Source of the DNA: Anaerolineae bacterium
Lineage (GTDB): Bacteria > Chloroflexota > Anaerolineae > B4-G1 > DUEL01
Reading direction: 5' to 3'
Length of the DNA: 55,933 bases
NCBI GenBank assembly: GCA_050049355.1
Contig: JASFWK010000003.1
Location: forward strand, 1 to 55,933
A program made the translations under genes and the position numbers. This document shows positions 11,401 to 41,981 of the stretch, piece after piece. How positions within the stretch are numbered: the stretch's first letter is position 1; each line of letters starts with the position of its first letter. The notes beneath the pieces were generated by a model. That model did not search any database, was not told where the DNA came from, and saw only the letters and a program-made list of their open reading frames with translations.

Positions 11401-14400
11401 TCACTCCGGCAAGTCAAACACCATCACCCGGTTGTTGGACGCGTCGGTCACGTAGAGGGAACCCTCTGGACCCAACGCCACCCCCATCGGCAGGCCGAAG
11501 GAGGTATCACCAAAACCATACTGCCCAAATCCGTAGAGGTAGTTGCCCTCAGCATCGAAGACCAGCACCCGGTAGTGACCAGGATCGGTCACGTAGACAC
11601 GCCCCTCGGCGTCTACCGCCACGTAGGGTTTCTCCTCCACCGCCGGGTTATTCCAGCCGGCGATGGGCCAGCTTCGCACCGGATCTCCATCTGGCTCCAG
11701 CACCTGGAGGCGATAGTTCCACGAGTCGGCGACGTAGATTCGACCCTCAGGACCAAAGGCCAATCCTACGGGCTCGTCCAGCTGACCCGGCTCCGACCCG
11801 GCCTGGCCCCACTCTCGCAGAAACTCTCCGTCCGACCCGAACACCTGCACGCGCTTGTGGCCTGTATCCGCCACATAGATCGCGCCCTCAGGACCCACGA
11901 CGATAGCCCGCGGTCCATAGAAGTGACTATGCCCAGAGAAGTCGTAGATGCCACGTTCACCAAAAGAGGTCCACTCGGTAACGAAGGTACCATCAGATGT
12001 GAACTTCTGGACGCGGTCCGCCCAGGTGTCGGCTACGTAGACAAATCCCTCGGGATCGACGGCTACGTCCCAAGGCTCGCAGAAAGTGCCGGGGGCAGGC
12101 TCTGCGTTAGGACAACCTCCGAAGGTCCCCCAGGCGGTCACGAACGCCCCGTCGGTGGTGAACTTCTGAATGCGATGGTTGCGGGAATCGGCCACGTAGA
12201 CGTAGCCATCAGGGGAGACTGCGATGCCTCGGGGGGCCAGGAACTGCCCAGAAGCACTCCCCTCCATCCCCCAAACCAGGCGGGCGCTCATCGACCGCCA
12301 ACCTTCGGCATAGGGAGCGACCTCCGGCTCAGTGGGCTCTGGCACCGGCCCAATGCCGAAGTCCCACAGGCGGTTGGCCACATCCTTGCGGATGTAGAGC
12401 CGGAAGGGAGAATGGAGCGGCCAATCGTCCGGCGTACGGTGCCCATCGGTGATCTCATCATAGAGGCCGTAGTCCATGTTGTAGAAGATCTTCCACAACG
12501 CGGTCAACTTGCGCGGGTTGGTGAGCCAGTCCCTCAGGCGCTTCCAGGTCAATTGACGGTAGTCTTCCACTGGCCACCAGAGGTAGAAGTAGTCGAAGGT
12601 GTAGTAGTCATCCCCCAGATGAGGTTCAACCGCCGCCCACTGTTCTCGTCCGGCAATGACCGCCGTGGCCAGAACTTGCTCTCGGTCGGGCTGTTGGGGA
12701 TAGTAGCGGGCGTTGGGATAGTTCCGCAGGTACCACGTGAAAGGCCAAGAGCCATCGGGACCGTAGGTCACATCTATGAGGCGCGGCCCGCCTCCCACCC
12801 GCAGCGACAGCTCCTCCAGTTGCTCCATCGTCGTCCGCACGTCTGGACCTTCGTGCGCATAGACCAGGAACTCGGCGGGACGGTCGAAGTTGATATACGA
12901 GAGGCGGTAGGCAACACGCGCCGTCAACAGCCCCAGCGTCAGAAAGCCAGTCAGAGCTATCAATAGAAACCCATTGCGTACGCCCACTCGCGCCCAGAGC
13001 AACCCCACCAGCGTTCCCACCAACCCCAGACCGACCAGTCCGCCCAGGAAGGTGCCGGTCACAAGCAGCGCATCCAGCTCCACGCCCTGGAAAGGCCCCT
13101 GGACGCCTGTCGCCACCGTCGCCGCCAGCGCGGCCACCAGCGCGGGCAGGAGCAGTACCAGGGCCCACCCCTTTCGCTCCCACATCCTCCGCCAGTCTAC
13201 CTGCTCCAGCAGCTGACCCAACAACCACCCCGTAAGCAATATCATTGGCAGGGCGATATGGACCACAAGCCAGGGCATCTTCTCGCCGGCATAGGAGTAG
13301 CCGAACCAGGCCAACAGCGCCCAAAAGACGACAAAGGGAATGAACAGGAAACGAGCTTCCCCCCCGGGAACCGCCTCCGCCCGGTCTTGAAGACGATCGG
13401 CTAGCTTTTCCCTCGATGAGTCCACAGCACGACGCACTACCAGGTAGAATGACGTGAGCAGCGCTCCCACCAGGGGAAGGAAATCGTAGAGAGGGAGTAT
13501 GACAAAATAGTAGAACCACGGCTGTCCGCCGCGCTCCACCTCTTGTTGCTCCAACCAATACCCCACGGAACCCACCCACCCACTGGCAATGCCCGAGCCG
13601 TTGGTGAAGACGGTAGTGAACAAGACGAGGAAGATGACAGAATGGATCGCCGCCGCAGTGAGCCACCGCCGTCGGTCCCAGGCTAGGCCTATCGCTATCA
13701 CCGCCAGCAGCACCAGCGCCAGAACCGCGCCGGAGTAATAGATGGAAGGTGCAGCATAATCGGTTGGCTGGACATTCGCGAGGTTCGACCAGAAGGGGGA
13801 TATGAGCTCTGGATTTGGAGAGCGTGCCACGACCAGAGAGCCCAGGCGTGCGACCAGATGGATTGGAATGGGAGACGCAAAGGGGAGGCTCAAGGTGCCG
13901 ATGAGCACTATCAGGTCGAAGGTGCGGAAGGAGCGCAGCTTGCCCCACAGGCCGTAGAGGACAGCGCCAGCGGCGACGACGAAAGCGACGAGGGCGAACA
14001 GGCCTCCACTCAGTCCCCAGAAGGGCAGAGAGGCCTCTCCCCCAGGCTCTGCTGCCCCAGGCGGCGCAGGCTGTTCCGCCGGGGCGCGCGTGCTCAGCCA
14101 GCCCATCGACAACACCACCAGCCCCACAATTATGCCCACCAACGCCGCCAGGAAGACCGTCTCCAACCTCGGGCGCTCCCAGGGCTGTGCCAGCGCCCGC
14201 ACCAGGAAGAGGCCAACCAGAAAGACGGCGATGATCACCGTGTAGATGGGAGCGACCTCCTTGGTGGCATACATCAGCGAAAGCCCGGCCGCCAGGATAT
14301 AGAGATGCTTATCCCGCCCCTTTTCCAGGTAGCGGAAGATCGCCCAGATGACGATCATCGCCCACAGGATCGCAGGGATGTCATGGCGGATGTAGCGGGA

Positions 14401-14817
14401 GTAGTAGGTGATAGAGGGAGAGATGAGAAGCAGCAGCGACGTTATCAGCGCTCCTTTCCTTCCCAAGTACCTGCGGAGAAGATATGGAAACGCCACTAGT
14501 AGAGTACCTATCAGGGCGACCGGGAGACGAGCGGTGAAGTCATTGTCGCCAAAGAGGAAATAGGAGAAGGCCGTGGCGTGGAAGAGAAAGGGGCCGTGCA
14601 TCATCGGATTGTGCTGAAAGCCATATCCTGCATACAGATCCCAGGAGAACTTGCAGTGCAGGCTCTCATCGTGGCTCTGCACCCGGTACCCCAACATCAC
14701 CAACCGAGAGACAAGACAGATCAGGAGAATCAGAATGTACAGCCCCTGCTCCCAGTTCAGTGATGCACCGCTAGCAATCTTTCGATCCAGCCAAGATCCC
14801 GCTTGTCTATCATTCAT
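11401..14817 (-). CDS. TIGR03663-type (Agl23-like, GT-C/PMT-like) polytopic membrane protein fused to a C-terminal NHL-repeat beta-propeller
   Basis: The N-terminal roughly 800 aa carry many TM helices, with an HDESLHCKF first-loop motif resembling the GT39 FDEVHFGK 'DE' motif. The C-terminal roughly 300 aa hold six repeats of the NHL pattern (e.g. PRGIAVSPDGYVYVADSRNHRIQKF). Confidence 0.8.
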   Translation of the reverse strand: MNDRQAGSWLDRKIASGASLNWEQGLYILILLICLVSRLVMLGYRVQSHDESLHCKFSWDLYAGYGFQHNPMMHGPFLFHATAFSYFLFGDNDFTARLPVALIGTLLVAFPYLLRRYLGRKGALITSLLLLISPSITYYSRYIRHDIPAILWAMIVIWAIFRYLEKGRDKHLYILAAGLSLMYATKEVAPIYTVIIAVFLVGLFLVRALAQPWERPRLETVFLAALVGIIVGLVVLSMGWLSTRAPAEQPAPPGAAEPGGEASLPFWGLSGGLFALVAFVVAAGAVLYGLWGKLRSFRTFDLIVLIGTLSLPFASPIPIHLVARLGSLVVARSPNPELISPFWSNLANVQPTDYAAPSIYYSGAVLALVLLAVIAIGLAWDRRRWLTAAAIHSVIFLVLFTTVFTNGSGIASGWVGSVGYWLEQQEVERGGQPWFYYFVILPLYDFLPLVGALLTSFYLVVRRAVDSSREKLADRLQDRAEAVPGGEARFLFIPFVVFWALLAWFGYSYAGEKMPWLVVHIALPMILLTGWLLGQLLEQVDWRRMWERKGWALVLLLPALVAALAATVATGVQGPFQGVELDALLVTGTFLGGLVGLGLVGTLVGLLWARVGVRNGFLLIALTGFLTLGLLTARVAYRLSYINFDRPAEFLVYAHEGPDVRTTMEQLEELSLRVGGGPRLIDVTYGPDGSWPFTWYLRNYPNARYYPQQPDREQVLATAVIAGREQWAAVEPHLGDDYYTFDYFYLWWPVEDYRQLTWKRLRDWLTNPRKLTALWKIFYNMDYGLYDEITDGHRTPDDWPLHSPFRLYIRKDVANRLWDFGIGPVPEPTEPEVAPYAEGWRSMSARLVWGMEGSASGQFLAPRGIAVSPDGYVYVADSRNHRIQKFTTDGAFVTAWGTFGGCPNAEPAPGTFCEPWDVAVDPEGFVYVADTWADRVQKFTSDGTFVTEWTSFGERGIYDFSGHSHFYGPRAIVVGPEGAIYVADTGHKRVQVFGSDGEFLREWGQAGSEPGQLDEPVGLAFGPEGRIYVADSWNYRLQVLEPDGDPVRSWPIAGWNNPAVEEKPYVAVDAEGRVYVTDPGHYRVLVFDAEGNYLYGFGQYGFGDTSFGLPMGVALGPEGSLYVTDASNNRVMVFDLPE

Positions 14818-14823
14818 TATCCA

Positions 14824-16659
14824 TCACTCATCATTGCTCACTATGGGGGCCGCCGTCGCCAAGTCCTCTCGCACCCAGAGGACAATCTCCTCCACAGAGG
14901 GTGGCACGGATGTCTCCCGATACAGCCACCAGCGTACCGCTCTGTAGCCTTCCCAACCGGACTGCCAGGTTCGGCGCAAAGGGAAGGTTTCTCCAAAGTA
15001 GCCCGAGGGCGGATCCACCTGAGCCGAGGCAACCACCAAGAGGGGCCGATCCTCCAGTTCACCCAGCGCCGGGAAGCCAGATTCAATCGCCAATGCCTGC
15101 TGATTGAACCGGCGCAGCTCCCAAGCCAGAACTGGCTCAACGTCGCCGAGAAACGTAATTGGCAGCCGCGCGCCTCCGCCCAGATTGACCCTGCTTGTCC
15201 GCTCTGCCACCTCTACCAGCGTGCGCACCTCCGTGGAGATCGCCTCCGGTACCAACAGCTCCCGTGGGTCGGTCGAACGCAGGTGGGAAAGCCCCCAGCC
15301 GGTGGAGAGGGTGACGAGCAAGAGCACCAGCCCCAGCGACAGCGCGCCACCGCGCAGCGCAGCCGCCATCCCTCGTCGTGCCGCCTTGGCTGGCTCCTCG
15401 TCCGGCTCCGGCGTCGAGACAGCGAATCCGAAGGCAGCAGCCAGCAGAATCTGGAGTACCACCGTCAGGCCAGCCAGGGTCAGATCGGCGGGATCGCTGG
15501 TGCGAACGTACCGGGCGAGGGCCAGACCACCGTGGACCCAAAGGACGAGCGAGATGGGCAGATAGAGCCCCTCGTTCACCCAGCGCCCATGGGCCCTGAT
15601 TGACTGCACCAGCTCCTCCACCGCCAACCCTCCCAGCCCCGAAAGTGGCAGCAGGACCCACAGAAGATCGGCGGGCTCACGGCCGGGCATAAGCACCAGC
15701 TGTACGATTCCGACGGCGGCCCAAAAGGTCCACAGCAGCCCCATTGCGTGTCTTCGCCGCATCGCCAACACCAGCCCGGCCACTCCAGCCAGCAATATCA
15801 AAGGCTCGTAGGCCAGCAGGGGGATGAAAGGAGAAGGCAAAGATGATCCCGCCGCGATACCGAAGCGCGCCAGCCAGACCAAGAACTGTTCGGCAGCGGC
15901 TGAGAGCCCGGCCGGGTTAAGCCCCATACCTGTACCCAGGGCCAGCACGGCCACCCCCGCCACGGCGAGTCCGCGCTTCAGGGGCACGTGGACCATCGGC
16001 CACAACCACGCCGTCTGATCCCACCACACCCAGAGCCCCCCCGCCAGGGCCAACACCAGCCCCGCCAGCAGCCCCACGCCCCCCGGTCCGGCCGTCAGCG
16101 CTATCGCCAGCCCCAGTCCTCCCAGCGTCACCAGGCTCGATCGCCAGGTCTCCAGGAAGCGCGCGACGCAGCCCACCAAGAGCATCACTCCCAGCGCAGC
16201 AGGGGTTGCTCCATCCAGCCTGCGAGAGAAGAAGAGGGTGGTAGGAGAAAGGGTCAGCAGGAGCCCCGCCCCTAGCGCTCCCCATCGGCCCAGGTAGTCC
16301 TGCAGGAGGAGCGGAGTCAGCACCAATCCCACCCCCGCCAGAGCGGGTATCAGGCGCGCCAGCGCGTCCCCCCCATCGAAGAGAACGAAGAGGAGCACAT
16401 TGAAGTTGAAGAGGAGAGGCACAGGCTGGTGCACAGCCAATTGCCGGCCCGTGCCCACTCCCTGGGAGGCCAGGTGCGCGGCCAGGGCCTGCCCTGCCTC
16501 GGCCGAATCCAAGGGGACTGCCCCTAAATGGGCCAGTCGAAGGCCGATCGCTACAAGAGCAAGGATAACCCACAGAAGGGGTATAGCCAACCCCGTCCCC
16601 GCCAAGCTGGGGGGCTTGCTGTCCTCAATAGAATCACGCAGCCGGTGACTCGTCATCAT
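14824..16659 (-). CDS. polytopic membrane protein, apparent GT-C-like paralogue lacking the DE motif
   Basis: 611 aa with more than 10 hydrophobic helices and a C-terminal soluble domain. The first loop reads PLDSAEAGQ rather than DE. It lies 6 nt upstream of the next gene. Confidence 0.6.
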   Translation of the reverse strand: MMTSHRLRDSIEDSKPPSLAGTGLAIPLLWVILALVAIGLRLAHLGAVPLDSAEAGQALAAHLASQGVGTGRQLAVHQPVPLLFNFNVLLFVLFDGGDALARLIPALAGVGLVLTPLLLQDYLGRWGALGAGLLLTLSPTTLFFSRRLDGATPAALGVMLLVGCVARFLETWRSSLVTLGGLGLAIALTAGPGGVGLLAGLVLALAGGLWVWWDQTAWLWPMVHVPLKRGLAVAGVAVLALGTGMGLNPAGLSAAAEQFLVWLARFGIAAGSSLPSPFIPLLAYEPLILLAGVAGLVLAMRRRHAMGLLWTFWAAVGIVQLVLMPGREPADLLWVLLPLSGLGGLAVEELVQSIRAHGRWVNEGLYLPISLVLWVHGGLALARYVRTSDPADLTLAGLTVVLQILLAAAFGFAVSTPEPDEEPAKAARRGMAAALRGGALSLGLVLLLVTLSTGWGLSHLRSTDPRELLVPEAISTEVRTLVEVAERTSRVNLGGGARLPITFLGDVEPVLAWELRRFNQQALAIESGFPALGELEDRPLLVVASAQVDPPSGYFGETFPLRRTWQSGWEGYRAVRWWLYRETSVPPSVEEIVLWVREDLATAAPIVSNDE

Positions 16660-16809
16660 CCTCCACAGCCCACAGCGAATAGCTCATTGAACGACTCCCC
16701 TACGCCTCCCATCACCAGTCGGTTTCGGCGGTGAGCGGCAGGAGACCTCGCCATAGCTCGGATAGGCGGTGGCGTCTCCCCGCCGCTAGCCCACAGACAG
16801 GGCAACCCC

Positions 16810-19338
16810 TCAGGGCCGAGGTACCGCCCCTGGCCGTCGTTGTTCCGACTCCGGTTCACTCGCTGGTGCCTCCGCAGGGCTCGGAACGTATCGGTAGATG
16901 GTCACTCCGCTGGCACTGTAGACGGCCTCCAACGCTTGGTCAAACTTCGCCAGCCCCGGCGCAGGGTAGCGAGATCGCTCCAGGGGGCCAACGTAGACGT
17001 ATCTTATATCATACCGATCCAGCAGCGTCAAGGTCTCCGTCAGCTCCGTGGTCGTATACAACGTCCCAATCTCCGGCTCTCGCCGGGCCGGTTCCTCGTA
17101 GTTGCCGCGCCACTGATGCTGGTGGCCGCCCCATCCCAGCAGAGTCGGCAGGCCAGTGAAGGCGGAAACTCGACCCTCGTAGACATAGGCTTTGAAGTGG
17201 TCGCCGGGCGCCTCAAGGATGATCGGCACGCCACCTACATTCTCGTTAAGCCAGTCAATCGCCGCGAAGTCGGCCGGCCGCGATTGACGCAGATGCGCCA
17301 CCCCATCCAGCGTGGGTGGCCCGCCATACTCCTGTGCCCGGGTGACGACCGCAAGTGGTAAGTAGACCAGGCCCCCCATAATCAGCACCAATCCCGCTGC
17401 CATTGCCCACCATCGCCCTCGCCGCACCAGCCGCGTCAGCCCGTATGCTCCCGCGATCGCCCACATCACCCAGGCCTGGAAATAGAACTTGAAGACCGTG
17501 TTCATTCGCGTGCCGAAGACATCCCGCAGATAGACGAACTCCACTGCCAGCGTGAGAAGCCCGCCAGCAACCACCAAGAGCAACGCATACGCGCCTGCCG
17601 CCGTCAAAGCCTCACGGCTCAGGTTGCCGGCTTCAGCATCGGAGCCCGGAGTCCCAGAGCTTGCAGTTTGAGGCTTCAGGAGAGTGAGCACCGCTGCCGT
17701 CAAGAGCGCCGCCAGAACCAAAGGGGTCCAGGGGCTCAGAAGCCGTCCCCGCAGGCGTTGAGCGATCAACCGGGATGCCTCTGGGATGTGCTCCAGGCTG
17801 GGTATGGGACCGCCACTCCGCCAAGCCTCAAAGTACTGACGGCTGTCCGGCGAGAGCAGGCCAGCCAGCAGGAGAAAGGCAAGAAGCCCAACCAGACCTC
17901 CCACAGCCCAAGCCACCACCTCCCAGCCCTCTACCTTCCGCCGCAGAGCCTCGGCGACCACGAGCCAGCTCACAGGAAAGAAGAGTGGCCCGAACATCAC
18001 CAGGAAATGGGACAACCGGGTGCCGTTGAAGAGGTTGGGCGCTATACCTGCAGCCTGAGATCGGAAGCCCAACCAGAAGGGGAGGTAGAGGAGAAAGCCA
18101 CCGAACGCCAGAGTAAGCACGAGCGCAAACAGGGGGAGAAGAGCGACCTCCGAATTGCGACGGTAGGAGGTCAGGGCGAATGCGGCCACGACAACAAAGA
18201 GGTAGATAGGAAAGTCCCAGGTGTTGAGAAAACCCAGCCCACCCAGGCAGACGGCATAAGTAAGAAGCTCCCAACCTGATAGAGGCAACTCCAGGTTCCA
18301 GATCCTGAGGTTCCGCTCCTTCCATCCGCGGAAGAATAAGGCAAGCGCCAGCGCCAATGCAAGCAAGACGAAGGGGAGCGCCAGCAGGTGGGGATGCATA
18401 TCCCCCAGGAGGAAGGAGAAGGCGGGGAATTCGTCAATGACCTCCCACTCGACTGGATTGGCGCGGGTATGCCAGGGTGCATAGTCGTGCAGCACACGGG
18501 AGGCCTGCCACCACCAAATGAAGCGGGTCGGTACCCACGACCCCTCGGCGAGGGGCGGCGGAGGGGCGTTGATGGAGCGAATATCAAGCCAATTCCAGAA
18601 AGAGGATGAGAACAGCCCTCGGGCGTGGAAGACCTCCAGCAGCCCTTCCAGGTTGCCGGTGAGAGTCACCAGCACCGGTCCCAGGAACCCCGCCCAGTCT
18701 GCCCAGCGCTTCTCCTCGCCCGCCAGCAGCGCATACAGCAGTCCGTAGCTTCCGGTGCAGGTCAAGGCAAAGAGAGCGGCGATGCCCAAGTTGAAAGCAA
18801 TCGTAGATGGGACCGCTGACAGGTGGATCACCATCCCCATCATCAGATAGCCAAAGTAGTAGTACGAGATGGCGAAGCCGGAGAGCCAGGGGTCGTGCGG
18901 GGGAAAGCGCGGCGCGCGCAGGATGGCGTTAACGAAGGCAATCTCCATCCATTTCTCTCCACCTGCGGTCTCAATGCGGGGCATGTGAGCGCGCACCAGA
19001 CACCAGGCGATGAATGCGACGGCGAAAAGCCCTTCAACGATCAGGACATGCCGCCACGGAAGAGAGAAAGCGTCTTCGGAGGAACGGAGCCAAAGCGCCG
19101 TACCGAACGCTGCCAGAAGCCCCAGCGCCACCAGGACTGACCCCGCTGCGTTGGGGAGCCAGCCAAAGACGGAGAAGAGCCAAAACAGCCACCCTCCCGC
19201 CAAGAGCCCAAGCGGACGCGCGAAGGCGTATCCCCGCCCAGGCAGACGGCGGAACAGGCGCAGCGTCAGCGGCAGAGCCGCTAGGCCGAAGAGCTGAAGG
19301 GTAAAGTACCAACGGAGGCCAAGAAGAGCTTGGCTCAC
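16810..19338 (-). CDS. DUF2298 / TIGR03662 'Chlor_Arch_YYY' family membrane protein
   Basis: The signature AISYYYFGY is present (YYY codons at 18856-18864). The GGEKWMEIAFVNA loop and a large C-terminal extracytoplasmic domain are also present. GTG start. Confidence 0.85.
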   Translation of the reverse strand: MSQALLGLRWYFTLQLFGLAALPLTLRLFRRLPGRGYAFARPLGLLAGGWLFWLFSVFGWLPNAAGSVLVALGLLAAFGTALWLRSSEDAFSLPWRHVLIVEGLFAVAFIAWCLVRAHMPRIETAGGEKWMEIAFVNAILRAPRFPPHDPWLSGFAISYYYFGYLMMGMVIHLSAVPSTIAFNLGIAALFALTCTGSYGLLYALLAGEEKRWADWAGFLGPVLVTLTGNLEGLLEVFHARGLFSSSFWNWLDIRSINAPPPPLAEGSWVPTRFIWWWQASRVLHDYAPWHTRANPVEWEVIDEFPAFSFLLGDMHPHLLALPFVLLALALALALFFRGWKERNLRIWNLELPLSGWELLTYAVCLGGLGFLNTWDFPIYLFVVVAAFALTSYRRNSEVALLPLFALVLTLAFGGFLLYLPFWLGFRSQAAGIAPNLFNGTRLSHFLVMFGPLFFPVSWLVVAEALRRKVEGWEVVAWAVGGLVGLLAFLLLAGLLSPDSRQYFEAWRSGGPIPSLEHIPEASRLIAQRLRGRLLSPWTPLVLAALLTAAVLTLLKPQTASSGTPGSDAEAGNLSREALTAAGAYALLLVVAGGLLTLAVEFVYLRDVFGTRMNTVFKFYFQAWVMWAIAGAYGLTRLVRRGRWWAMAAGLVLIMGGLVYLPLAVVTRAQEYGGPPTLDGVAHLRQSRPADFAAIDWLNENVGGVPIILEAPGDHFKAYVYEGRVSAFTGLPTLLGWGGHQHQWRGNYEEPARREPEIGTLYTTTELTETLTLLDRYDIRYVYVGPLERSRYPAPGLAKFDQALEAVYSASGVTIYRYVPSPAEAPASEPESEQRRPGAVPRP

Positions 19339-19389: not shown

Positions 19390-20907
19390 CTAAACAGCGG
19401 ACTCCTCCAGCAGCCGAGCCGCCGCATCTAGCCGATCCAGGACCCGCTCCTGACCAAGGATGCTCAGAGTACCAAACAGAGGCGGGGAGACCTTCTTGCC
19501 AGTCGTGGCGAGGCGGATGACGCCAAAGACCTGTCCAGTCTTGAGGCCCAATTCCTCCACCAACCCCCGCAGCGGCGGCTCCAGGCCCTCCTTGCTGAAA
19601 TCGGACACCTGCGCCAGCAGTTCTCGCGCACTCCGCAGTATCTCCAGCGTCTGCTCTGGTGTCAGCTTCTTTCGGACCAGCATCTCCGGCGGTGGTGGTT
19701 CGATGTCGACAAAGAAGAAGTCAGTCAGAGGCACCACGTCCGTCAGACGCTTGATTCGCTCTTGAATCAGTGGGACGATGGGCCGTAGTGTCGCTTGTCG
19801 CAAATCCTCCGGGCATGGATCGGGCACCAGCCCCGCCTGCTGCCAGAATGGGATCAACCGCTCCAAGAGGTCATCTAGGGAGAGTTTTCGGATGTAGACG
19901 CCATTCATCCAGTCCAGCTTGTCAAAGGAGAAGGCAGCCGGGGCACGATTGACGCGGAACAGGTCAAACCGCTTGATCAATTCTTCCCGAGCGAAGAGTT
20001 CCTGCTCTTCCCCCTCCCCCGGGGCCCAGCCCAGAAGGGCCAGGAAGTTGAACAGTGCTTCCGGCAGATAGCCGAGTTCGCGAAACTCGGTGATAGAGGT
20101 AGCCCCTTCCCGCTTGGACAACTTCTTACCGCTCGGCATCGTCACCAGCGGGACGTGACAATAGGCAGGGATCTCCCATTCCAGCGCCTGGTAGATCAGG
20201 ATGCGCTTGGGCGTACTGGGGATCCAGTCATCGCCGCGGATGACGTGGGTGATCCTCATGTAATGATCGTCCACCACCACAGCCAGATGGTAAGTGGGGA
20301 AGCCATCGGACTTGAGGAGGATCTGATCGTCTATCCTGGCGTTATCGAAGACCACCCTGCCCCTAATCGCGTCGTCGACCACGGTCTGGCCCGTCAGCGG
20401 GACCTTGAGCCGGATGACATGCGGCTCGTCCGGGGAGATGGCATCCGGAGCGAGGTTGCGGCAGTGCCGATCGTACATAGGCGGCTGCTTGCGAGCCCGT
20501 TGAAGCTTCCGCACGCGCTCCAGTCGCTCCGGCGTGCAGTTGCAGCGGTACGCCCAGCCCCGCTTGAGGAGTTCCTCCGCCGCCTCCCTGTACATCTCCA
20601 ACCGCTCCGACTGGATGTATGGACCGTATGGCCCGCCCACAGCGTATCCATCGGGACTCTCAACGCCTGAGCGCTGCAGTTCTTCATACCCCGGCCCCTC
20701 ATCCCAATCAAGGCCCAACCAACGCAGGCCGTCCATAATGATCGGAATAGATTCGGGCTGATACCGCGTCCGATCGGTGTCCTCGATACGCAGGATGAAC
20801 TTCCCGTCCATCTGGCGTGCGAAGAGCCAGTTGAAGACAACCGTCCGCACGTTGCCGATGTGTGGCTCGCCAGTCGGGCTCGGAGCAAAGCGAACACGAA
20901 CAGTCAT
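19390..20907 (-). CDS. gltX: glutamate--tRNA ligase
   Basis: HIGH-type motif PTGEPHIGNVRT and KMSKS-type motif KLSKR, at class I GluRS length. Confidence 0.95.
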   Translation of the reverse strand: MTVRVRFAPSPTGEPHIGNVRTVVFNWLFARQMDGKFILRIEDTDRTRYQPESIPIIMDGLRWLGLDWDEGPGYEELQRSGVESPDGYAVGGPYGPYIQSERLEMYREAAEELLKRGWAYRCNCTPERLERVRKLQRARKQPPMYDRHCRNLAPDAISPDEPHVIRLKVPLTGQTVVDDAIRGRVVFDNARIDDQILLKSDGFPTYHLAVVVDDHYMRITHVIRGDDWIPSTPKRILIYQALEWEIPAYCHVPLVTMPSGKKLSKREGATSITEFRELGYLPEALFNFLALLGWAPGEGEEQELFAREELIKRFDLFRVNRAPAAFSFDKLDWMNGVYIRKLSLDDLLERLIPFWQQAGLVPDPCPEDLRQATLRPIVPLIQERIKRLTDVVPLTDFFFVDIEPPPPEMLVRKKLTPEQTLEILRSARELLAQVSDFSKEGLEPPLRGLVEELGLKTGQVFGVIRLATTGKKVSPPLFGTLSILGQERVLDRLDAAARLLEESAV

Positions 20908-27222: not shown

Positions 27223-28128
27223 TCAACCTTGGATGGTCCAATCCCAGAACCAGTAGGCCAAGCCTTTCCAGGGTCCCCAACGCTCGAAGGCCGTCTCCAC
27301 CTCCTTACGACCGATCGGTTCCCCCTCATACCACTCCTGCGACACCAGCTTCCGTGCCCAAGTATCCACAGGCAGATAGTCATACCGACCCAAGAGCATC
27401 AGCAGCGAAGCGGCAGCGTAGTCCCCAACACCCTTGATCTCCTTCAAGGCCTGACGCACCTCCGGCGTGGGAACTCCGCCGTCCTTGAACCGCTCCAGAT
27501 CCAACCGACCGTCAGCTGTGCGCCGAGCCAATTGTAATATGAAGGGTGCCCGATAACCCAGGCCCGCCTCACGCAAGCCTTCTTCGGTGGAGACAGCCAG
27601 TTGAACGGGCGCGGGAAAGGCATGGCGGGAAGGGTCGGTGGGGAGAGGATCGCCGTATCTGGTCAGAAGTGTTTCGACCATGCGGATTGTCCCTGCCCAC
27701 GAAGTGTTGGTGGTCAGGATGACCTTGACCGCGTCCTCGAAAACGGTCGGCGAGCGAAGCATGCGCCCCAAAGCTCGATGCTCCACATACGCCAGCTTGG
27801 GCTCCTTCCGAGCCAGGGCGTGGAAAGGAGAGAGATCCTGCCCCAGACCGAGCATCCACCAAACCTTGCGACTGACCTCTTCCCGTTCAGCGCCAGTCAG
27901 ACGCTCCCGCGTCTCCACACTGACCCCGCCCCTGGCCTCCTGGATACGCAGTTCGACGACCCGCTCTGTATCCAACCGCTCGACGCGGGTCAGTAGGCAG
28001 CTGTGCATATCGGCTGCAAAGGGCGGGAGCCGCACCCAACCATGGGACTCCAGGACCGCCCGAAATGAGAAGGGTAGACAAGCCGACAGAGTCAGACGCA
28101 CACCGAACCTCCCGCCACAAGATACCAT
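27223..28128 (-). CDS. HhH-GPD DNA glycosylase (AlkA-like 3-methyladenine glycosylase II family)
   Basis: Helix-hairpin-helix IKGVGDYAAASLLML is followed by the catalytic Asp context LPVDTWARK. Confidence 0.8.
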   Translation of the reverse strand: MVSCGGRFGVRLTLSACLPFSFRAVLESHGWVRLPPFAADMHSCLLTRVERLDTERVVELRIQEARGGVSVETRERLTGAEREEVSRKVWWMLGLGQDLSPFHALARKEPKLAYVEHRALGRMLRSPTVFEDAVKVILTTNTSWAGTIRMVETLLTRYGDPLPTDPSRHAFPAPVQLAVSTEEGLREAGLGYRAPFILQLARRTADGRLDLERFKDGGVPTPEVRQALKEIKGVGDYAAASLLMLLGRYDYLPVDTWARKLVSQEWYEGEPIGRKEVETAFERWGPWKGLAYWFWDWTIQG

Positions 28129-28306
28129 AGGTGACGAGAGGCGAAATTGCGATGGGGTTACGATTCCGTTACACCCCAGACTTCCGTCGAACGTCCGCCC
28201 ACATCGGTATCGGTCGGCGGCGAACTTGGCTCGCTGGACAGGATGCGTATACTTGTCGCCAGGAACGTGCCATCAGGGTACTGCGAACTGGGAGAGGAAA
28301 GCAAGA

Positions 28307-29230
28307 ATGAATCAGACGAAAGCGCTCCACTCCGAGATCATCGCCTGGCTACTCGAGCCAGAAGCGCCCTCCGTTCGCTACTGGACTTTGATCCGACTCC
28401 TCGATCGTCCCCTCGATGGTCCTGAGGCGCAGGAGGCCCGTAGGAAGATCGCGCACCGTGGACCGGTGGTCGAAATCCTCAAGCACTACGCGGGGGACGG
28501 TCGTTGGGAAGGAGAGCGCAGCTACTACACGCGCAAGTACACCGCCACTCACTGGCAGCTGCTGCTCTTGGCAGAACTGGCAGCCGATGGCGACGATGAG
28601 CGGATCGCGGCCGCGTGCCGCCGGATGATCCAGGAGGTTGATCAGGAGCAACGCACGCTGATCTACCCGTGTTTCCACGGCAACCTGATCGGCTACCTCC
28701 ACGCGCTGGGGTACGGTGCGGACGAGCGGGTTCGTCAGTTCGAGCTGGAACTGGGCCAAGCCGGTCTGAGAGGGGGGTGGCGGTGCGAGATCAACGAAGG
28801 TCTGGCCTGCGCGTGGGGTGCCGCCAGGGCTCTCTGGGGCTTCAGTTGCATCTCTCCTTCAGAGCGGGCTCCCCACGTGAATGAGGCGATCGAGGCGGGG
28901 GTACACTTCCTGGGCTGCCATGAGCTGCGGGAGGGGAAGTACCCAACGCCCACCAGGCGCCACCGGCTCTGGGATTGGCTGAGCTTCCCGCTCTTCTATC
29001 AGGCCGATGTCCTCTTTATCCTGGAAGTGTTGGCCGACCTGGGAAGGCTCAGCAGGGAATCCACCTTCGGCGAGGCGGTGAAGTGGCTGGAGGAGCACCG
29101 CCGAAACGACGGGCGCTGGAACGGACGCAGCCCCTACCGGCAGCGGATGTGGGCCCCTCTCGAGAAGAGCGGCCGCCCCAGCAAGTGGGTCACGTGGAAG
29201 GCCCTATACGTGCTGAAGACGATCCGTTGA
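28307..29230 (+). CDS. hypothetical alpha/alpha-toroid (prenyltransferase/terpene-cyclase-like repeat) protein
   Basis: Repeated xDGRWxG motifs (GDGRWEG, NDGRWNG). I start it at the ATG at 28307; the upstream part of ORF 27638..29230 is antisense to the glycosylase gene. Confidence 0.55.
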   Translation: MNQTKALHSEIIAWLLEPEAPSVRYWTLIRLLDRPLDGPEAQEARRKIAHRGPVVEILKHYAGDGRWEGERSYYTRKYTATHWQLLLLAELAADGDDERIAAACRRMIQEVDQEQRTLIYPCFHGNLIGYLHALGYGADERVRQFELELGQAGLRGGWRCEINEGLACAWGAARALWGFSCISPSERAPHVNEAIEAGVHFLGCHELREGKYPTPTRRHRLWDWLSFPLFYQADVLFILEVLADLGRLSRESTFGEAVKWLEEHRRNDGRWNGRSPYRQRMWAPLEKSGRPSKWVTWKALYVLKTIR

Positions 29231-35227: not shown

Positions 35228-35275
35228 GCTCGGCTAGCCCTACACTGCTTTAGGCACAGTTGCAGGAGGAATGAC

Positions 35276-35908
35276 GTGAGACGAATCGAGCCAAGCGGGT
35301 ACTTCTACCCAAACAAGCTGGCCCGTGTCTACATTCTGGCTCTGGAAGATGTTATGGGGAAGAACGGCCTTAACGCCATTCTGAACCTGGCAGGTCTCTC
35401 TCACCTGATTGATAACTATCCCCACGATAATTTCGACAAGCAATTCGAGTTTTCTGACTTCTCGACGCTCAACTGGGCGCTTGAGGAGATGTACGGCCCG
35501 CGCGGAGGGCGTGGGCTGGAGCTGCGAGCTGGGCGGGCTGCCTTTGCACGAGGGTTGCCCGGATTCGGCCCTCTCGCTGGCGTGGGCGATCTGGCCTTCA
35601 AAGTTCTGCCCCTCCAGGCTAAGTTGAGGGCAGGGATCCCTGCGTTGGCCAAGATCTTCACGGAGTTCAGCGACCAGACCAGTAGGGTAGAGGACAAGGG
35701 GGAATACTACACGTACACCATGAATCCCTGCCCCGTATGCTGGGGGCGCCAGGTCGACCGGCCGATCTGCTTTGCGGGAATGGGGGTGATCGAAGAAGGC
35801 CTGCACTGGGTGAGCGGAGGAAAGAAGTTCCGCGTGGACGAGATCGAGTGCGTGGCTGCCGGTGGAGATATCTGCACCTACGCTATCTACAAGGAGCCAA
35901 TCGGCTGA
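35276..35908 (+). CDS. V4R (4-vinyl reductase) domain protein
   Basis: C-terminal V4R Cys pattern NPCPVCWG...PICFAGMGVIEEGL...EIECVAAGGDICTY. The GTG start is preceded by AGGAGGA. Confidence 0.8.
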   Translation: MRRIEPSGYFYPNKLARVYILALEDVMGKNGLNAILNLAGLSHLIDNYPHDNFDKQFEFSDFSTLNWALEEMYGPRGGRGLELRAGRAAFARGLPGFGPLAGVGDLAFKVLPLQAKLRAGIPALAKIFTEFSDQTSRVEDKGEYYTYTMNPCPVCWGRQVDRPICFAGMGVIEEGLHWVSGGKKFRVDEIECVAAGGDICTYAIYKEPIG

Positions 35909-36087
35909 GTGCGTGCCCAAGGAGCCTTTGGAGACATCGCCGACCAAGCCAACCTGACTGGACCTCTATTGGCTCAAGAGCGCCCACCTCAAGAACGCTT
36001 CGAGGGAAGCCTCCGGAGTCCTGTGCCCGGCCGCGAATGTTGGGTTTCGGCTGGACACGGGTGTGAGCCACTCTGATCGACGCGAAT

Positions 36088-36957: not shown

Positions 36958-37041
36958 GCTCACTCCTGAGCTGGCACGTTCCCTGGGTTGCGGCTGCCGC
37001 CTTCGTCCAGCCGCACTTTCTTGCTTTGGAGCAAGGCGGAC

Positions 37042-37779
37042 ATGCAGGTAACAGTAGTTATCCCCACCTACAACGAAGCGAAGAACCTCGTTCCGATGGC
37101 GGAGGCGCTGTGGGAAGTGGGACCGCCGGAGCTGAGCATTCTGGTGGTCGATGATGAGTCTCCCGACGGTACCGGAGCCATCGCCCACCAGCTGGCGGCC
37201 GAGAATCCCGGACGCTTAAACGTCCTCCACCGGACTGGCCCTCGCGGCCTGGGGCATGCCTACAAGGATGGTTTCCGGTGGGCGCTAGCGCACGGGGCGG
37301 AAGCCGTGGCTCAGATGGATTGTGATTTTTCCCACGCCCCTGCCGATGTTCCCCGGCTGCTGGCACACGTCCCCGACTACGACGTGGTCGTCGGCTCCCG
37401 CTACGTACAGGGAGGCCAGACCGACGAGGAATGGGGGCTGGGTAGGGTCTTCCTCTCGTGGTGGGCGAACTTCTACGCCGGTTTGATTCTGGGCTCCCGT
37501 GTGCGGGACATCACCGCTGGCTTCAAGGCCTGGCGGCGGGAAGCGCTTGAAGGGATTGACCTGGAGAGCGTCCGCTCCCAAGGCTACGTCTTCCAGGTGG
37601 AAATGGCCTACATCTGCGAGCGACTGGGCTATCGCGTCCTGGAGGTCCCCATCTACTTCGAGGATCGACGCATCGGCCGCTCCAAGATGACCATGCCGGT
37701 CAAGATTGAGGCCGCCCTGCGGGTGTGGGAGGTTCGCTGGCGCCACCGGCATCTGCAGCCCCGCCGTGGAGGCGTATGA
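37042..37779 (+). CDS. GT2 polyprenol-monophosphate sugar synthase (Dpm1/Ppm1-like)
   Basis: Motifs [22 protein letters not shown] and the DxD-type DCDFSH. It is a soluble type of 245 aa from the ATG at 37042. Confidence 0.88.
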
Positions 37780-40700
37780 TCCGCCGACGGCTACCTACAC
37801 TGGCTTCAGCCCTCATACTAATCCTGCTGCCACTGACGCTGTTCGCCCCCGTGGCCCTGGGAGACCGCACGCTCCTACCCGCCGATGTCCTCTTCCTGTT
37901 CGAGCCCTACAGAGCAGCAGCTGACGAGCTGGGGGTTGGCATCCCCCAGAACCCCCTGTTCGGCGACCTGATCCTGGAGAACTACGCCTGGAAGCAATTC
38001 CTGGTGGAGGCAATCCACAATCGCGATCTTCCTCTCTGGGATCCTTACACCTTCGCCGGTCACCCTTTCCTGGCCAACGGGCAGCACTCGGCCCTATATC
38101 CGCTGGCTGTCACCTTCTATCTCATCCCCCTGTGGCGTGCCTATGGCCTCTTCATCTGGCTCCAGCTCGGGCTGGCGGGGTGCTGGGCCTACCTATTCGC
38201 GCGTACATTGGGAGTGCGTCGCCTGGGTGCGCTAATCGGCGGCATCACGTTCCAGCTCAGCGGCTTCATGCTGGTCTCCGTGGTCCATCCGATGATCGTC
38301 GCCGGCGCTTCGTGGCTGCCCTTCATCCTGGCGATGGTGGAGCGGCTGATCCAACAGCGACCAGCGCTGGGCAGACGCCCCTCCAGCCTTCCCTGGACAC
38401 TGCTTGGGGCACTCGGTCTCGGCTGTCAGATGCTTGCCGGTCACGCGGAGAATACATACTTCGTGCTGCTGGTGACGGCGCTCTATGCCGGATGGCGGCT
38501 CGTTCACTCTTCCATCCATTCCTCGCCCGCTGACTCCGCACCTGGTCCAAGCCGCGTCCGCCCTGTCTTGTGGTTGATGGCAATGGTGGGGCTGGGGTTG
38601 GCGCTGGGGGCCGTGCAGTTCATACCGCTGTACGAGGTAGCGGCGAGCAGCTTCCGCGCCGGAGAAGCAGCGCCAACTCTGTCCCAGGTGTTGGGCTGGG
38701 CGTACCCGCCGCGGCGGTTGATCACCTTCGCAATCCCAAACTTCTTCGGCAACCCAGCCCATCACGGCCACTTCGACCTTTTCCAGGGACAAGCAGTCCG
38801 GGCCACCGCGAACGCCCTTGGGGAGGATATCCTGAGCCATGATTGGGGGATCAAGAACTACGTAGAGGGCGGCGCGTACCTGGGGCTGTTGCCGCTGTTG
38901 CTGGCGGTTCTGGCTGTCTTCCGACCCCCGAATCTGCGAGTCCCGAACGGCGAAGGTCGTGGATTCGTACTTCGCAGGATCGGAAACTGGTTTCGCCATC
39001 CGTACGTCCCGTTTTTCACGCTGCTGAGCCTCTTCTCCCTGGGTTGTGTATTCGGCACCCCGCTCTATGCTCCGGTCTACGCGCTTCCTTTCTTCCGTCA
39101 GTCCCACTCCCCCTTCCGCTGGGTCTTCCCTCTCACCCTATCGGTGGCGATGCTGGCAGGCTTCGGGATCGAGGTGGTGCGAAGGAGCAGGGAGAAAAGG
39201 ACCCTCTCGCAACCCACCCGCCGCAGTCTACGATCGCGAATCGGCAGCCTATTCCTCCTCAACACCGCTCCCACCCTGGTCTCTATCGTCGCCGCGCTGG
39301 CCTTCTGGGGTGGGGTAGTGACACTGACGGGGTTGGTTCTCAGTCGGGTTCTGTTCGTCGAAATCGAGCCGTTGGTGAAGCGGGCTTTCTGGAACCTGAC
39401 CCTCGCGCCCAACGCCTTCGCCGATCACCGCGCCTTCTACTCTTACGAGTTCCAATGGATCGCCCTCTTCGGTCTCGTTCTGACCGGCACCGGGATCGTT
39501 CTGAGAGTGAGCCGCTGTCCCATCAGCCTCCGTGGCCGACCCGTATGGGAGCCGCTGGCGGTGGTCCTGCTGGTGGCCGACCTGGCCTCGTTCGGCGCGG
39601 GATTCCATCCGGCCGTGGACCCCGCCCTACTGGACTACACCCCGCCGGTGGTGGAGTTCCTCCAAGAGGACACTTCCCTCTGGCGGTACGCCGCCTTCAC
39701 CCCGCCGGGTTCCACCAAGACGATGAACCCCAACGCGGGGATGTTCTACGATCTCCAGGCGGTGGACGGATATGACTCACTCTTCCCACGCCAGTACGCC
39801 GATTACATGGAGCTCATCGAGGAACAGGATGAGCTCAGGTATAATCTCATCGCCCCCTTTCGCAATTGGTCCAGTCTGGATAGCCCCTTGACGGACCTCC
39901 TCAACGTCAAATACGTTATCACTGAGGCTGAGATTCCCAACCCGGCCAAGTACCGCTTGGCCTACCAGGACGAGGCGGTGCGCGTCTACGAGAACCTGAC
40001 GGTGATGCCCCGGGCCTTCACTCTCCCCATCTCCGCAACCGTCGTCGCCGACGACGTGGCCGAAGCCCTGCGCACCCACGACCCCCATCGCTTCGTCATC
40101 GTGGAGTCACCGCCCTCCCGCGCAGCTTCGAATCTGCAACCCGCTGCCCCAAGCCCACAGCCCGTGACCCACTACACGATCAACGAGGTATTCGTGGATG
40201 CGGCTATTCCCGAGCTCAGCTGGCTCGTGCTGACCGACTCGTTCTTCCCCGGCTGGCGCGCCTTCGTGCGGCCGCACGGCAGTGGGGAAGAGGCGGAGCA
40301 GGAGATCACCATAGCGCGAGTGGATGGGAACTTCAGAGGCGTCTTGTTGGAAGCGGGAGAGTGGACAGTTCGCTTCAAGTACAGCCCGAACAGTGTGAAG
40401 ATAGGCAGCTTCCTCTCCTTCATCGCCGGAATGGTGGTTCTCTTTCTTGCCGGATTCTATCTATGGCGCTTTTTCTATCGGGAGGATGCCGAACCCAGCA
40501 CGGTCCAGCGGGTGGCCAAGAACTCCCTTGCCCCCATTGTGACCAACCTCTTCAACCGAGTCATCGACCTCGCCTTCGCCGCGCTTATGGCCCGCATCTT
40601 GGGACCGGTGGGGAACGGCCGCTACGCCACTGCCATCGCCGTCTTCGGCTGGTTCGACATCCTGACCAACTTCGGCTTGAATATGTACCTCCTGCGGGAA

Positions 40701-41981
40701 GTCGCCCGCGAACGAGATCGGGCCGGCCGGCTTCTCGTCAATACCACCGCCCTGCGGCTCACCCTATTAGGCGTGGGGATACCGCTCCTTTCTTTGTTCT
40801 TGTGGGGACGACAGGCACTGGCAGAGCCGATGGCCGCAGACACGGTCAAGGCGATCCTGCTCCTCTATCTGGGCCTCCTGCCAGGGACCGTGGCGATGGG
40901 GTTGGGGGCATTCTTCCAGGCCTTCGAGAGGCACGAGATTCCCGCCGCCATCCAGACCTTCACCACAATCATCAAGGTGACCTTGGGTGTATTGCTGCTC
41001 GTGGGGGGGCTGGGGATCGTGGGCTTGGCCGGCGCCTCTATCGTGACCAATCTCGCCACATTGGCGATATTGGCAATTCTGGCTCACCGACTCATCTTCA
41101 GGGGGGAGCGCGCGCTGCCGCTGGGGTTGGATCGCCAATTGCTACGGCGGATGGTGCGGGATAGCTGGGCGTTGATGCTCGTCCACCTCCTGCAGTCCCT
41201 CTTCTTCAAGGTGGACGTAGTACTCCTGCAGGGAATGCAGGGAGACGCCGTGGCGGGCTGGTACGACGCAGCCTACAAATGGGTGAACGCGCTCAACATC
41301 ATTCCCTCGTTCTTCACCTTCGCCGTATTCCCCGTAATGTCCCGCCAGGCGGCACAGGACCGTGCCGCACTTCTCCGCTCCTACCGCCTTTCGGTCAAGC
41401 TGCTGGTGGTGGTGGCCCTTCCGGCAGCGGTGATCTGCACCCTGACGGCCCGCGGTCTGGTGGGCGTCTTGAGCGGGCCAGCCTTCCTGCCCGACGGAGC
41501 GATCGCCTTGCAGCTTGTGATCTGGTCAATCCCCATTGGCTGGATCAACAGCCTGACCAATTACGTACTCATTGCCTTGAACCGGCAGCGACACGTGGCA
41601 GTCGCCTCGGCGGTGGGGCTGGCCTTCAACCTGACAGCCAACGCACTGCTGATCCCCCGCTACAGTTACGCCGCCTCGGCGGTAGTGACGATCCTCAGCG
41701 AAGCAGTGCTGCTCGGGGCCTTCTACATCCTACTGCGGCGCGACCTGAGGCCCGTTGGATGGGTGCAAGTCCTGGGCCGGCCCGCCCTGGCCGGACTGAC
41801 GATGGCGGCAGCTGCCTGGGCGGTGGCTCCCTTCAACCGGCCACTGGCCGTCATGGCGGGTTTGGGGATCTACCTGACGGGACTGGTCCTCCTGCGGGTC
41901 CTCACACCGGAGGAACTGGGGATGTTGACGCCCTTAATCCCCTGGAAGAGACGCGAGCGCTCCGTTCCCACTCCTCGGTAG
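37776..41981 (+). CDS. fusion protein: YfhO-family GT-C-like membrane protein (N-terminal, about 900 aa) + MOP/Wzx-type polysaccharide flippase (C-terminal, about 490 aa)
   Basis: N-terminus reads [10 protein letters not shown]...[23 protein letters not shown] (YfhO-like). From about nt 40500 the pattern is Polysacc_synt-like ([22 protein letters not shown]...GWYDAAYKW...). The ATG at 37776 overlaps the GT2 stop as ATGA. Confidence 0.8.

Follow-up and report, generated by a model that had tools for sequence, protein, structure and literature searches.

The 55,933-nt stretch analyzed here (the window: positions 1 to 55,933 of contig JASFWK010000003.1, assembly GCA_050049355.1, from a Chloroflexota member designated Anaerolineae bacterium) harbors a tandem of three genes for large membrane proteins, hereafter the trio, all located on the minus strand. 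According to the list of open reading frames (ORFs), gene 1 (YYY; 16810-19338) encodes 842 aa and begins with a GTG codon preceded by GAAGGGG, gene 2 (P611; 14824-16659) encodes 611 aa and gene 3 (P1138; 11401-14817) 1138 aa, the latter two with ATG starts. A spacer of 150 nt (16660-16809) lies between the first two genes and only 6 nt (14818-14823) separate the last two, in agreement with the sizes and gaps given in a preliminary description made from the sequence alone. The public gene call for gene 3 starts at Met41 (1098 aa), and thus lacks the conserved N-terminal stretch together with the greater part of transmembrane helix 1; the 1138-aa version and the 6-nt gap were retained because the homologues align over the full length and residues 10-27 are conserved. 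The G+C content at third codon positions (GC3) of the trio was 0.73-0.75, in line with the rest of the window's genes. The nearest homologues of all three proteins, with identities up to 72%, came from metagenome bins of Anaerolineae and Thermoflexia, which points to an uncultured member of the Chloroflexota as the source, and the same sequence was also present in wetland metagenomes.

Profile searches assigned the product of gene 1 to the TIGR03662/DUF2298 'YYY' family as a full-length member, with 531.9 bits against TIGR03662 (cut-off 300.25) over profile positions 6-725 of 727 and 372.9 bits against Pfam DUF2298 (PF10060; threshold 27.8). A permissive Pfam scan (E<=10) returned DUF2298 only, without even a weak match to STT3 or DPY19. 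The AISYYYFGY signature noticed in the preliminary description was found at residues 156-164 (18847-18873, minus strand), with S158, Y159, Y160, Y161, G163 and Y164 invariant in 36 homologues; the YYYxG motif is a defining feature of this family in its TIGRFAMs description. The topology of the proteins of genes 1 and 3 was derived by applying the positive-inside rule to the helices of their AlphaFold (AF2) models. For gene 1 this gave approximately 16 transmembrane helices, with both ends outside and a C-terminal outside domain, and all invariant motifs fell into predicted outside loops or this domain. The long, conserved outer loop after the fourth helix contained GGEKWME (126-132), PPHDPW (146-151) and the AISYYYFGY signature, including the invariant E128, E132 and D149, and was followed by D313-x-H315 in the next long loop. 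Further motifs predicted outside were WWW, IDEFPxFSF-LGDMHPH and the E600/D606/R611-N-TVFKFY region. The C-terminal extracytoplasmic alpha/beta domain, delimited by the AF2 secondary structure (residues 672-842; 16813-17325, minus strand), showed the invariant pattern TGLP..GW..H..QWRG in the 36 homologues.

The AF2 model of gene 1 (predicted local distance difference test, pLDDT, 78; predicted template modeling score, pTM, 0.85) had only four significant Foldseek matches in PDB, which headed the list: the archaeal oligosaccharyltransferase AglB (7e9s) and three DPY19 entries (7zlh, 7zli and 7zlg), all of the GT-C glycosyltransferase class, with probability 1.00 and E values from 8e-6 (AglB) to 1.5e-4. 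The next entries were unrelated transporters, whose E values were higher by a factor of more than 90 and whose probability was 0.21 or less. The C-terminal domain gave a match of its own to the globular domain of AglB-S2 (3vu0_B), with probability 1.00 and a TM-score of 0.48 on the target. Judged by this model the gene 1 protein is AglB-like in fold and, because no link to STT3 or to solved chains was detected at the sequence level, not a member of the STT3 family.

The third gene scored 248.4 bits against TIGR03663 (cut-off 126.25) with the match split into three stretches, of which the best spanned positions 4-182 of the 435 in the profile, so that both family assignments of the preliminary description, TIGR03662 for the first and TIGR03663 for the third gene, held in the searches with curated hidden Markov models (HMMs). 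The NCBIfam name of TIGR03663 is 'flippase activity-associated protein Agl23'. Together with the matches to Pfam PMT_2 (60.9 bits, gathering score 26.1, residues 74-236) and Pfam NHL (PF01436; 158.4 bits in five stretches), this identifies the protein as a TIGR03663 (Agl23 family, PMT_2) membrane protein fused to a six-bladed NHL propeller. Its model (pLDDT 81) consists of a many-helix membrane domain (TIGR03663/PMT_2, residues 1-645; 12883-14817), an extracytoplasmic alpha/beta domain defined by the AF2 secondary structure (residues 646-830; 12328-12882) and the six-bladed NHL beta-propeller recognized by Pfam, PDB profiles and Foldseek (residues 831-1138 plus stop; 11401-12327), all on the minus strand. 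The membrane domain was predicted to contain about 17 transmembrane helices with the N-terminus inside, which places the HDE/HGP, SRYIRHD, KE and GEK motifs and the C-terminal domains outside; the outside position of the NHL domain follows from helix parity. Among PDB profiles the propeller matched the NHL domain of Thin (E 1.8e-63), TRIM71 and the sensor domain of PknD, and in Foldseek the TM-score on the target was 0.90 for 6xg7 (Thin/TRIM71 NHL). It is predicted to be a candidate acceptor-binding module.

Residues H49/D50/E51, H74-G75-P76, R38, R45, R97, R115 and R120 were invariant in 34 homologues of gene 3. The HDE motif (14665-14673, minus strand), located at the start of the first outside loop and followed by the invariant HGP, was present in 31 out of 31 species orthologues. 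The invariant residues agree with the DE dipeptide, the HGP tripeptide and the two arginines near the N-terminus given in the TIGRFAMs description of TIGR03663. In GT-C enzymes the active site is made up of outside loops, and because of this the outward motifs of genes 1 and 3 in the modeled topology would be the arrangement expected of such enzymes. In protein O-mannosyltransferases the catalytic residue is an Asp of the outer loop 1 (PMC12331936). A GT-C fold of the gene 3 membrane part is suggested by PMT_2 and the motifs. The GT-C character proposed earlier from the sequence thereby found support in the AglB and DPY19 matches for gene 1, and in PMT_2 with the invariant HDE of the first outer loop for gene 3.

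The protein of gene 2 stayed below the TIGR03663 cut-off (74.2 bits versus 126.25), had no Pfam match even at E<=10, and PDB sequence and profile searches with it gave nothing useful. Profile-profile alignment (hhalign) of its family with that of gene 3 gave a probability of 99.9 over 521 columns: gene 2 has no NHL domain and is without approximately 190 further residues, equal to some four helices, and its residues 455-560 align to residues 637-739 of gene 3, which makes the first part of the alpha/beta domain common to both. A paralogy with gene 1 was rejected, the hhalign probability between DUF2298 and TIGR03663 being 0.4, that is, no relationship. The 611-aa protein had been called a paralogue in the preliminary description, and this was upheld in respect to gene 3 and not in respect to gene 1. 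Gene 2 is thus a paralogue of the membrane domain of gene 3 that has been shortened and evolves fast, a divergent TIGR03663 offshoot. In 25 out of 25 loci it showed the lowest conservation within the trio (median identities of 32% for gene 2, 39% for the gene 3 membrane domain, 44% for gene 1 and 47% for NHL). From the HDE motif it keeps only Glu54: the His and the HGP were absent in 55 orthologues, and the position before Glu54 was occupied by Asp in just eight of them. Because the presumed catalytic Asp, in analogy with that of the PMT outer loop 1, has been lost, the catalysis is probably lost or changed, and the protein is likely a non-catalytic or accessory subunit.

The conservation of the gene order was followed by scanning one genome per GTDB species for relatives of gene 1, which produced at least 581 stretches; the locus counts are based on the best 80 of these. 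All 80 loci belonged to Chloroflexota bins except for one labeled 'Proteobacteria bacterium' (L077, JAEZBH010000242.1); its upstream gene clusters with that of the Anaerolineaceae locus L075, and the label is probably a binning error. Of the 66 species loci with enough sequence, 46 had a co-directional gene of the gene 2 type that started no more than 1 kb downstream of YYY, and the full order of YYY, short paralogue and TIGR03663 with NHL was found in 26 of the 45 species loci with at least 8 kb downstream. Carriers of the trio include the loci L064, L066 and L076 of the thermophile Thermoflexus. The identity of YYY among the order-keeping loci ranged from 37 to 70%. The order is kept across Chloroflexota species, which is the conservation in related genomes that the preliminary description had asked for. 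The window's housekeeping flanks (upstream of the trio minD-like, ftsW/rodA, DUF362 and gltX, and downstream methylmalonyl-CoA mutase) were common only to the closest relative, L001, among the loci compared, and were different in the others. The trio thus behaves as a conserved unit, since it persists while its flanks differ, and its adjacency is far beyond chance because the same order recurs in dozens of species with differing flanks. It is a real functional module conserved across Anaerolineae. That genomes with TIGR03663 also contain TIGR03662, often nearby, is a remark already made by the TIGRFAMs curators, so the linkage as such was catalogued before and is extended here.

The two families were also found joined covalently. 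In 35 of the 50 loci with at least 6 kb of upstream sequence, YYY was preceded by a gene for a 1500-1950-aa PMT_2-DUF2298 fusion (for example, L053:4828-9843) in which an N-terminal PMT_2 module, with an HPDE motif in 33 of the 35, is followed by a complete TIGR03662 domain. The fusion gene was, in turn, often preceded by genes for another PMT_2 protein (700 aa), a methyltransferase and a GT4 enzyme. The fusion, the 700-aa PMT_2, GT4 and methyltransferase genes of the relatives were looked for in the window, and none was found. The search of representatives also yielded giant proteins of 2400-2750 aa (P0353, P0375, P0403 and similar); of the two scanned, one combined PMT/PMT_2 with two DUF2298 copies and the other two DUF2298 copies with a C-terminal TPR. 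On unrelated distant contigs a DUF2298 gene was placed directly ahead of a PMT_2 gene. In another Chloroflexi genome DUF2298 adjoins PMT_2 genes, one of which has PA14 where gene 3 has NHL (PMC8756737).

Transcription of the locus was traced in a wetland metatranscriptome, where low-depth contigs with 99-100% identity matched each of the three genes as well as the spacer. One of them (16574-16782) joined most of the 150-nt spacer to the start of gene 2, and another (16841-16984) covered the 3' end of gene 1. In respect to the co-expression considered in the preliminary description, transcripts of all members were thus recovered and co-transcription stayed unproven: the contigs are compatible with it and no proof of it, none crossing the stop codon of gene 1, all being strandless and DNA carry-over being possible. 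Scans for promoter and terminator consensus sequences gave terminator-like sites at chance level, and neither the junctions nor the spacer contained any site; the spacer likewise had no match in Rfam.

With moderate confidence we lean toward reading the trio as a single module for extracytoplasmic glycosylation, with polyprenyl-phosphate-linked sugars as donors. Gene 1 would provide a GT-C enzyme of the STT3/DPY19 structural class, with the conserved loops and the AglB-like C-terminal domain facing outward. Gene 3 would be a PMT/ArnT-like GT-C enzyme with the His-Asp-Glu of the first outer loop as the presumed catalytic center, and its outward NHL propeller would hold the acceptor, which might be a glycan of the wall or a protein of the surface. 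Most likely gene 2 acts as a non-catalytic partner of either gene 3 or gene 1, which would scaffold the complex or present or flip the donor. Such heterodimers of paralogues have precedents in Pmt1-Pmt2 and EmbA-EmbB. A physical coupling of the proteins is favored because of the PMT_2-DUF2298 fusions and the 6-nt gap, and the notion of 'one machine' in the preliminary description was strengthened by these natural fusion proteins.

The proposed module has points in common with several known systems. Similarly to PMT and ArnT enzymes (Pmt1-Pmt2, MtPMT), gene 3 matches PMT_2 above the gathering score and has an acidic motif at the start of the outer loop 1, the site of the PMT catalytic Asp; its appended outside domain could engage the acceptor in the same way as the MIR domain of PMT, and the gene 2/gene 3 paralogue pair is reminiscent of the Pmt1-Pmt2 heterodimer. 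In contrast to them, gene 3 matches none of the solved PMT or ArnT structures in sequence, carries NHL in place of MIR, and its approximately 17 helices include a four-helix insertion. In comparison with the GT66 oligosaccharyltransferases (STT3/AglB/PglB), gene 1 has in common the combination of an alpha/beta domain outside and a membrane domain of many helices, and AglB was both its best fold match in PDB and the independent match of its C-terminal domain, although the protein differs in having no match to the STT3 HMM (E<=10), a TM-score of 0.30 and about 16 helices, three of them ahead of the long conserved loop. The C-mannosyltransferase DPY19 (GT98) was the second-best fold match, with a TM-score of 0.37-0.41 on the target and probability 1.00, while the two proteins showed no similarity in sequence and DPY19 has nothing comparable to the C-terminal domain.

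Three-component systems, in which a lipid-sugar synthase and a flippase serve a GT-C enzyme whose C-terminal module binds the substrate, are a general way to glycosylate outside the membrane (PMC11127046). The trio would resemble such systems, for example that of GT136, in the lipid-linked monosaccharide donor, the GT-C enzyme with a C-terminal binding module and the location outside the membrane, and differs from them in having three GT-C-type proteins in tandem instead of a linked synthase or flippase. A precedent for the role proposed for gene 2 is PIG-U of the glycosylphosphatidylinositol (GPI) transamidase, a GT-C-fold subunit without catalysis which binds lipid or serves as a scaffold (PMC7801869); no homology between the two was seen beyond the superfamily, and the inactivity of gene 2 is suggested by motif loss.

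Several observations weigh against the glycosylation module. About 40% of the species loci had an incomplete trio, and no polyprenyl-phosphate sugar synthase is linked to it. The global TM-scores of gene 1 against AglB and DPY19 were low (0.30-0.41), several of its conserved loops were modeled at pLDDT <50, it had no sequence match to STT3 (Pfam, E<=10) or to any PDB chain, and the WWDYG motif is absent, its C-terminal domain showing GW-GH-QWRG instead. With full-length gene 3 the 50 listed Foldseek matches were all beta-propellers, nearly all NHL, which left the membrane fold not comparable, and the sequence profile of its membrane domain matched no solved structure in the PDB search. The literature contains incidental mentions of DUF2298 proteins, with no activity, donor or acceptor for any of them, and the only experimental activity reported for the family's namesake, Agl23 of Haloarcula hispanica, is the flipping of lipid-linked glycans and not their transfer (PMC11182771).

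It is possible, albeit unlikely in our view, that gene 3, gene 2 or both are ATP-independent flippases for lipid-linked glycans and that the DUF2298 protein is the sole transferase, receiving the donor directly from them. The H. hispanica Agl23, described as a putative hexose-P-dolichol flippase, flipped M5GN2-PP-dolichol in liposomes when purified and rescued the yeast rft1-delta mutant (PMC11182771), and gene 3 belongs to the same family, named after the flippase activity by NCBIfam, with a score almost double the cut-off (248 versus 126 bits). Both proteins are polytopic and PMT_2-like and have been linked to the handling of lipid-phosphate-bound glycans. A direct hand-over of the donor would explain the PMT_2-DUF2298 fusions, and a gene 2 that has kept the membrane core without the presumed catalytic Asp is in keeping with a flippase. 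On the other hand, the HDE and HGP motifs of gene 3, invariant in an outside loop in 31 out of 31 species, would not be needed by a flippase, for which the approximately 490 residues of outside domains, including the ligand-binding propeller, would also be superfluous, and PMT_2 is a glycosyltransferase family. Gene 3 resembles the Agl23 model only in patches (three stretches, the best one over positions 4-182 of 435). The 1138-aa protein differs from the 435-position model by large insertions, the extra outside domain and the NHL propeller; being bacterial, it would use polyprenol as the carrier and not dolichol; and gene 2 fails the cut-off of the model.

Less probable still is that the three are independent GT-C enzymes which work one after the other on a single polymer and form no complex, building or decorating a secondary wall polysaccharide or a glycolipid and not glycosylating proteins. 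The relatives with up to six GT-C-type modules in a row, accompanied by GT4 and a methyltransferase, do look like an assembly line, the replacement of NHL by PA14 in the PMT_2 gene beside DUF2298 (PMC8756737) also fits, and the Emb/Aft arabinosyltransferases of mycobacteria offer a likeness. However, the covalent fusions and the 6-nt gap point to physical coupling, gene 2 has no presumed catalytic Asp, and no polymer or sugar-nucleotide pathway genes were conserved beside the trio in the relatives. A mere chance or operon-packing juxtaposition with gltX, ftsW/rodA, the minD-like and methylmalonyl-CoA mutase genes, with unrelated roles in, for example, division or peptidoglycan synthesis, would account for the co-directional, short-gapped run of genes from 24380 down to 9678 and is highly improbable, given that the flanks are common only to L001, that other loci keep the trio within different flanks and that fusions connect the two families. 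The division/peptidoglycan role suggested by the ftsW and minD neighbors was rejected, as these flanks are not conserved.

The glycosylation module may be extended to a bolder version, which we put forward with considerable doubt. The DUF2298 proteins might represent an unrecognized oligosaccharyltransferase-like GT-C family, AglB-like in structure and unrelated to it in sequence, forming, in Chloroflexota, a fixed or fused complex with Agl23-type proteins that would couple flip and transfer of lipid-linked glycans. One Agl23-type partner would then be catalytic and carry the acceptor-binding propeller, and the other would be a dead subunit flipping or presenting the donor, the targets being surface proteins or wall polymers of the monoderm envelope.

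Both families, their names and their genomic association were known already, and such genes are routinely annotated by the NCBI pipeline. New are the predicted AglB/DPY19-like fold of DUF2298, the finding that the middle gene is a paralogue which is conserved yet deficient in motifs, the counts that quantify the synteny, and the use of the PMT_2-DUF2298 fusions as an argument for coupling. With 9168 clusters (50% identity, E<=0.001) DUF2298 is a large family that has essentially no literature, and the modeled fold with its outward invariant motifs, the pairing and often fusion with Agl23/PMT_2-type proteins, and the split into an intact and a degenerate paralogue provide handles on its function. 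A defined activity would bear on the question whether Agl23-type proteins flip, transfer or do both. Sediments, wetlands and wastewater are rich in Anaerolineae, and the envelopes of Chloroflexota are poorly understood. A surface filament of Chloroflexota likely bears O-glycans, for which the enzyme is unassigned (PMC12488501).

Several other features were observed around the YYY genes of the relatives. Genes for an extracytoplasmic function (ECF) sigma factor and a putative anti-sigma factor were located between the fusion gene and YYY in L006:8786-9987, L030, L040, L057 and L083:5799-7255, which hints that the cluster may be controlled by envelope stress; at this place the window lacks the pair. 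In L082 (5563-12744; also in L081) a pair of DUF2298 (814 aa) and PMT_2 (882 aa) genes was enclosed by two identical 922-nt direct copies of an insertion sequence (IS) element with DUF4096 and DDE_Tnp_1 ORFs and terminal inverted repeats, a layout resembling a composite transposon; in L081 the DUF2298 gene was split in two (501 and 305 aa). In the window, gltX (19390-20907, minus strand) lies 51 nt upstream of the YYY gene, and in L012 (12627-14375), L014 and L022 a GlnRS-like gene was found directly downstream of YYY, followed by a gene for an aminoglycoside phosphotransferase (APH)-type kinase-like protein. The presence of a class I Glu/Gln-type aminoacyl-tRNA synthetase beside YYY in two arrangements may be a coincidence.

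Across the window, scans with Rfam and for tRNA gave no match. An ORF for 530 aa (27638-29230, plus strand; GC3 0.74) had no match in Pfam or NCBIfam, and another for 235 aa (35240-35947, minus strand; GC3 0.60) had none in Pfam. Two genes on the plus strand are candidates for donor supply: a GT2 polyprenyl-phosphate glycosyltransferase-like gene (36988-37779; Pfam Glycos_transf_2) and a gene for a 1418-aa YfhO/Wzx-flippase fusion (37725-41981; Pfam YfhO and Polysacc_synt). Their NCBIfam matches to AglJ, dolichyl-phosphate hexose transferase and Wzx-type flippase were weak, all below the cut-off. The preliminary description had connected this pair, 18 kb away, with the trio; no synteny evidence ties either gene to it. 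In the larger ORF the YfhO-like match covered residues 668-766 and the Wzx/Polysacc_synt flippase domain residues 931-1254; it shares 55 nt with the end of the GT2 gene, and such a transferase-flippase fusion is unusual.

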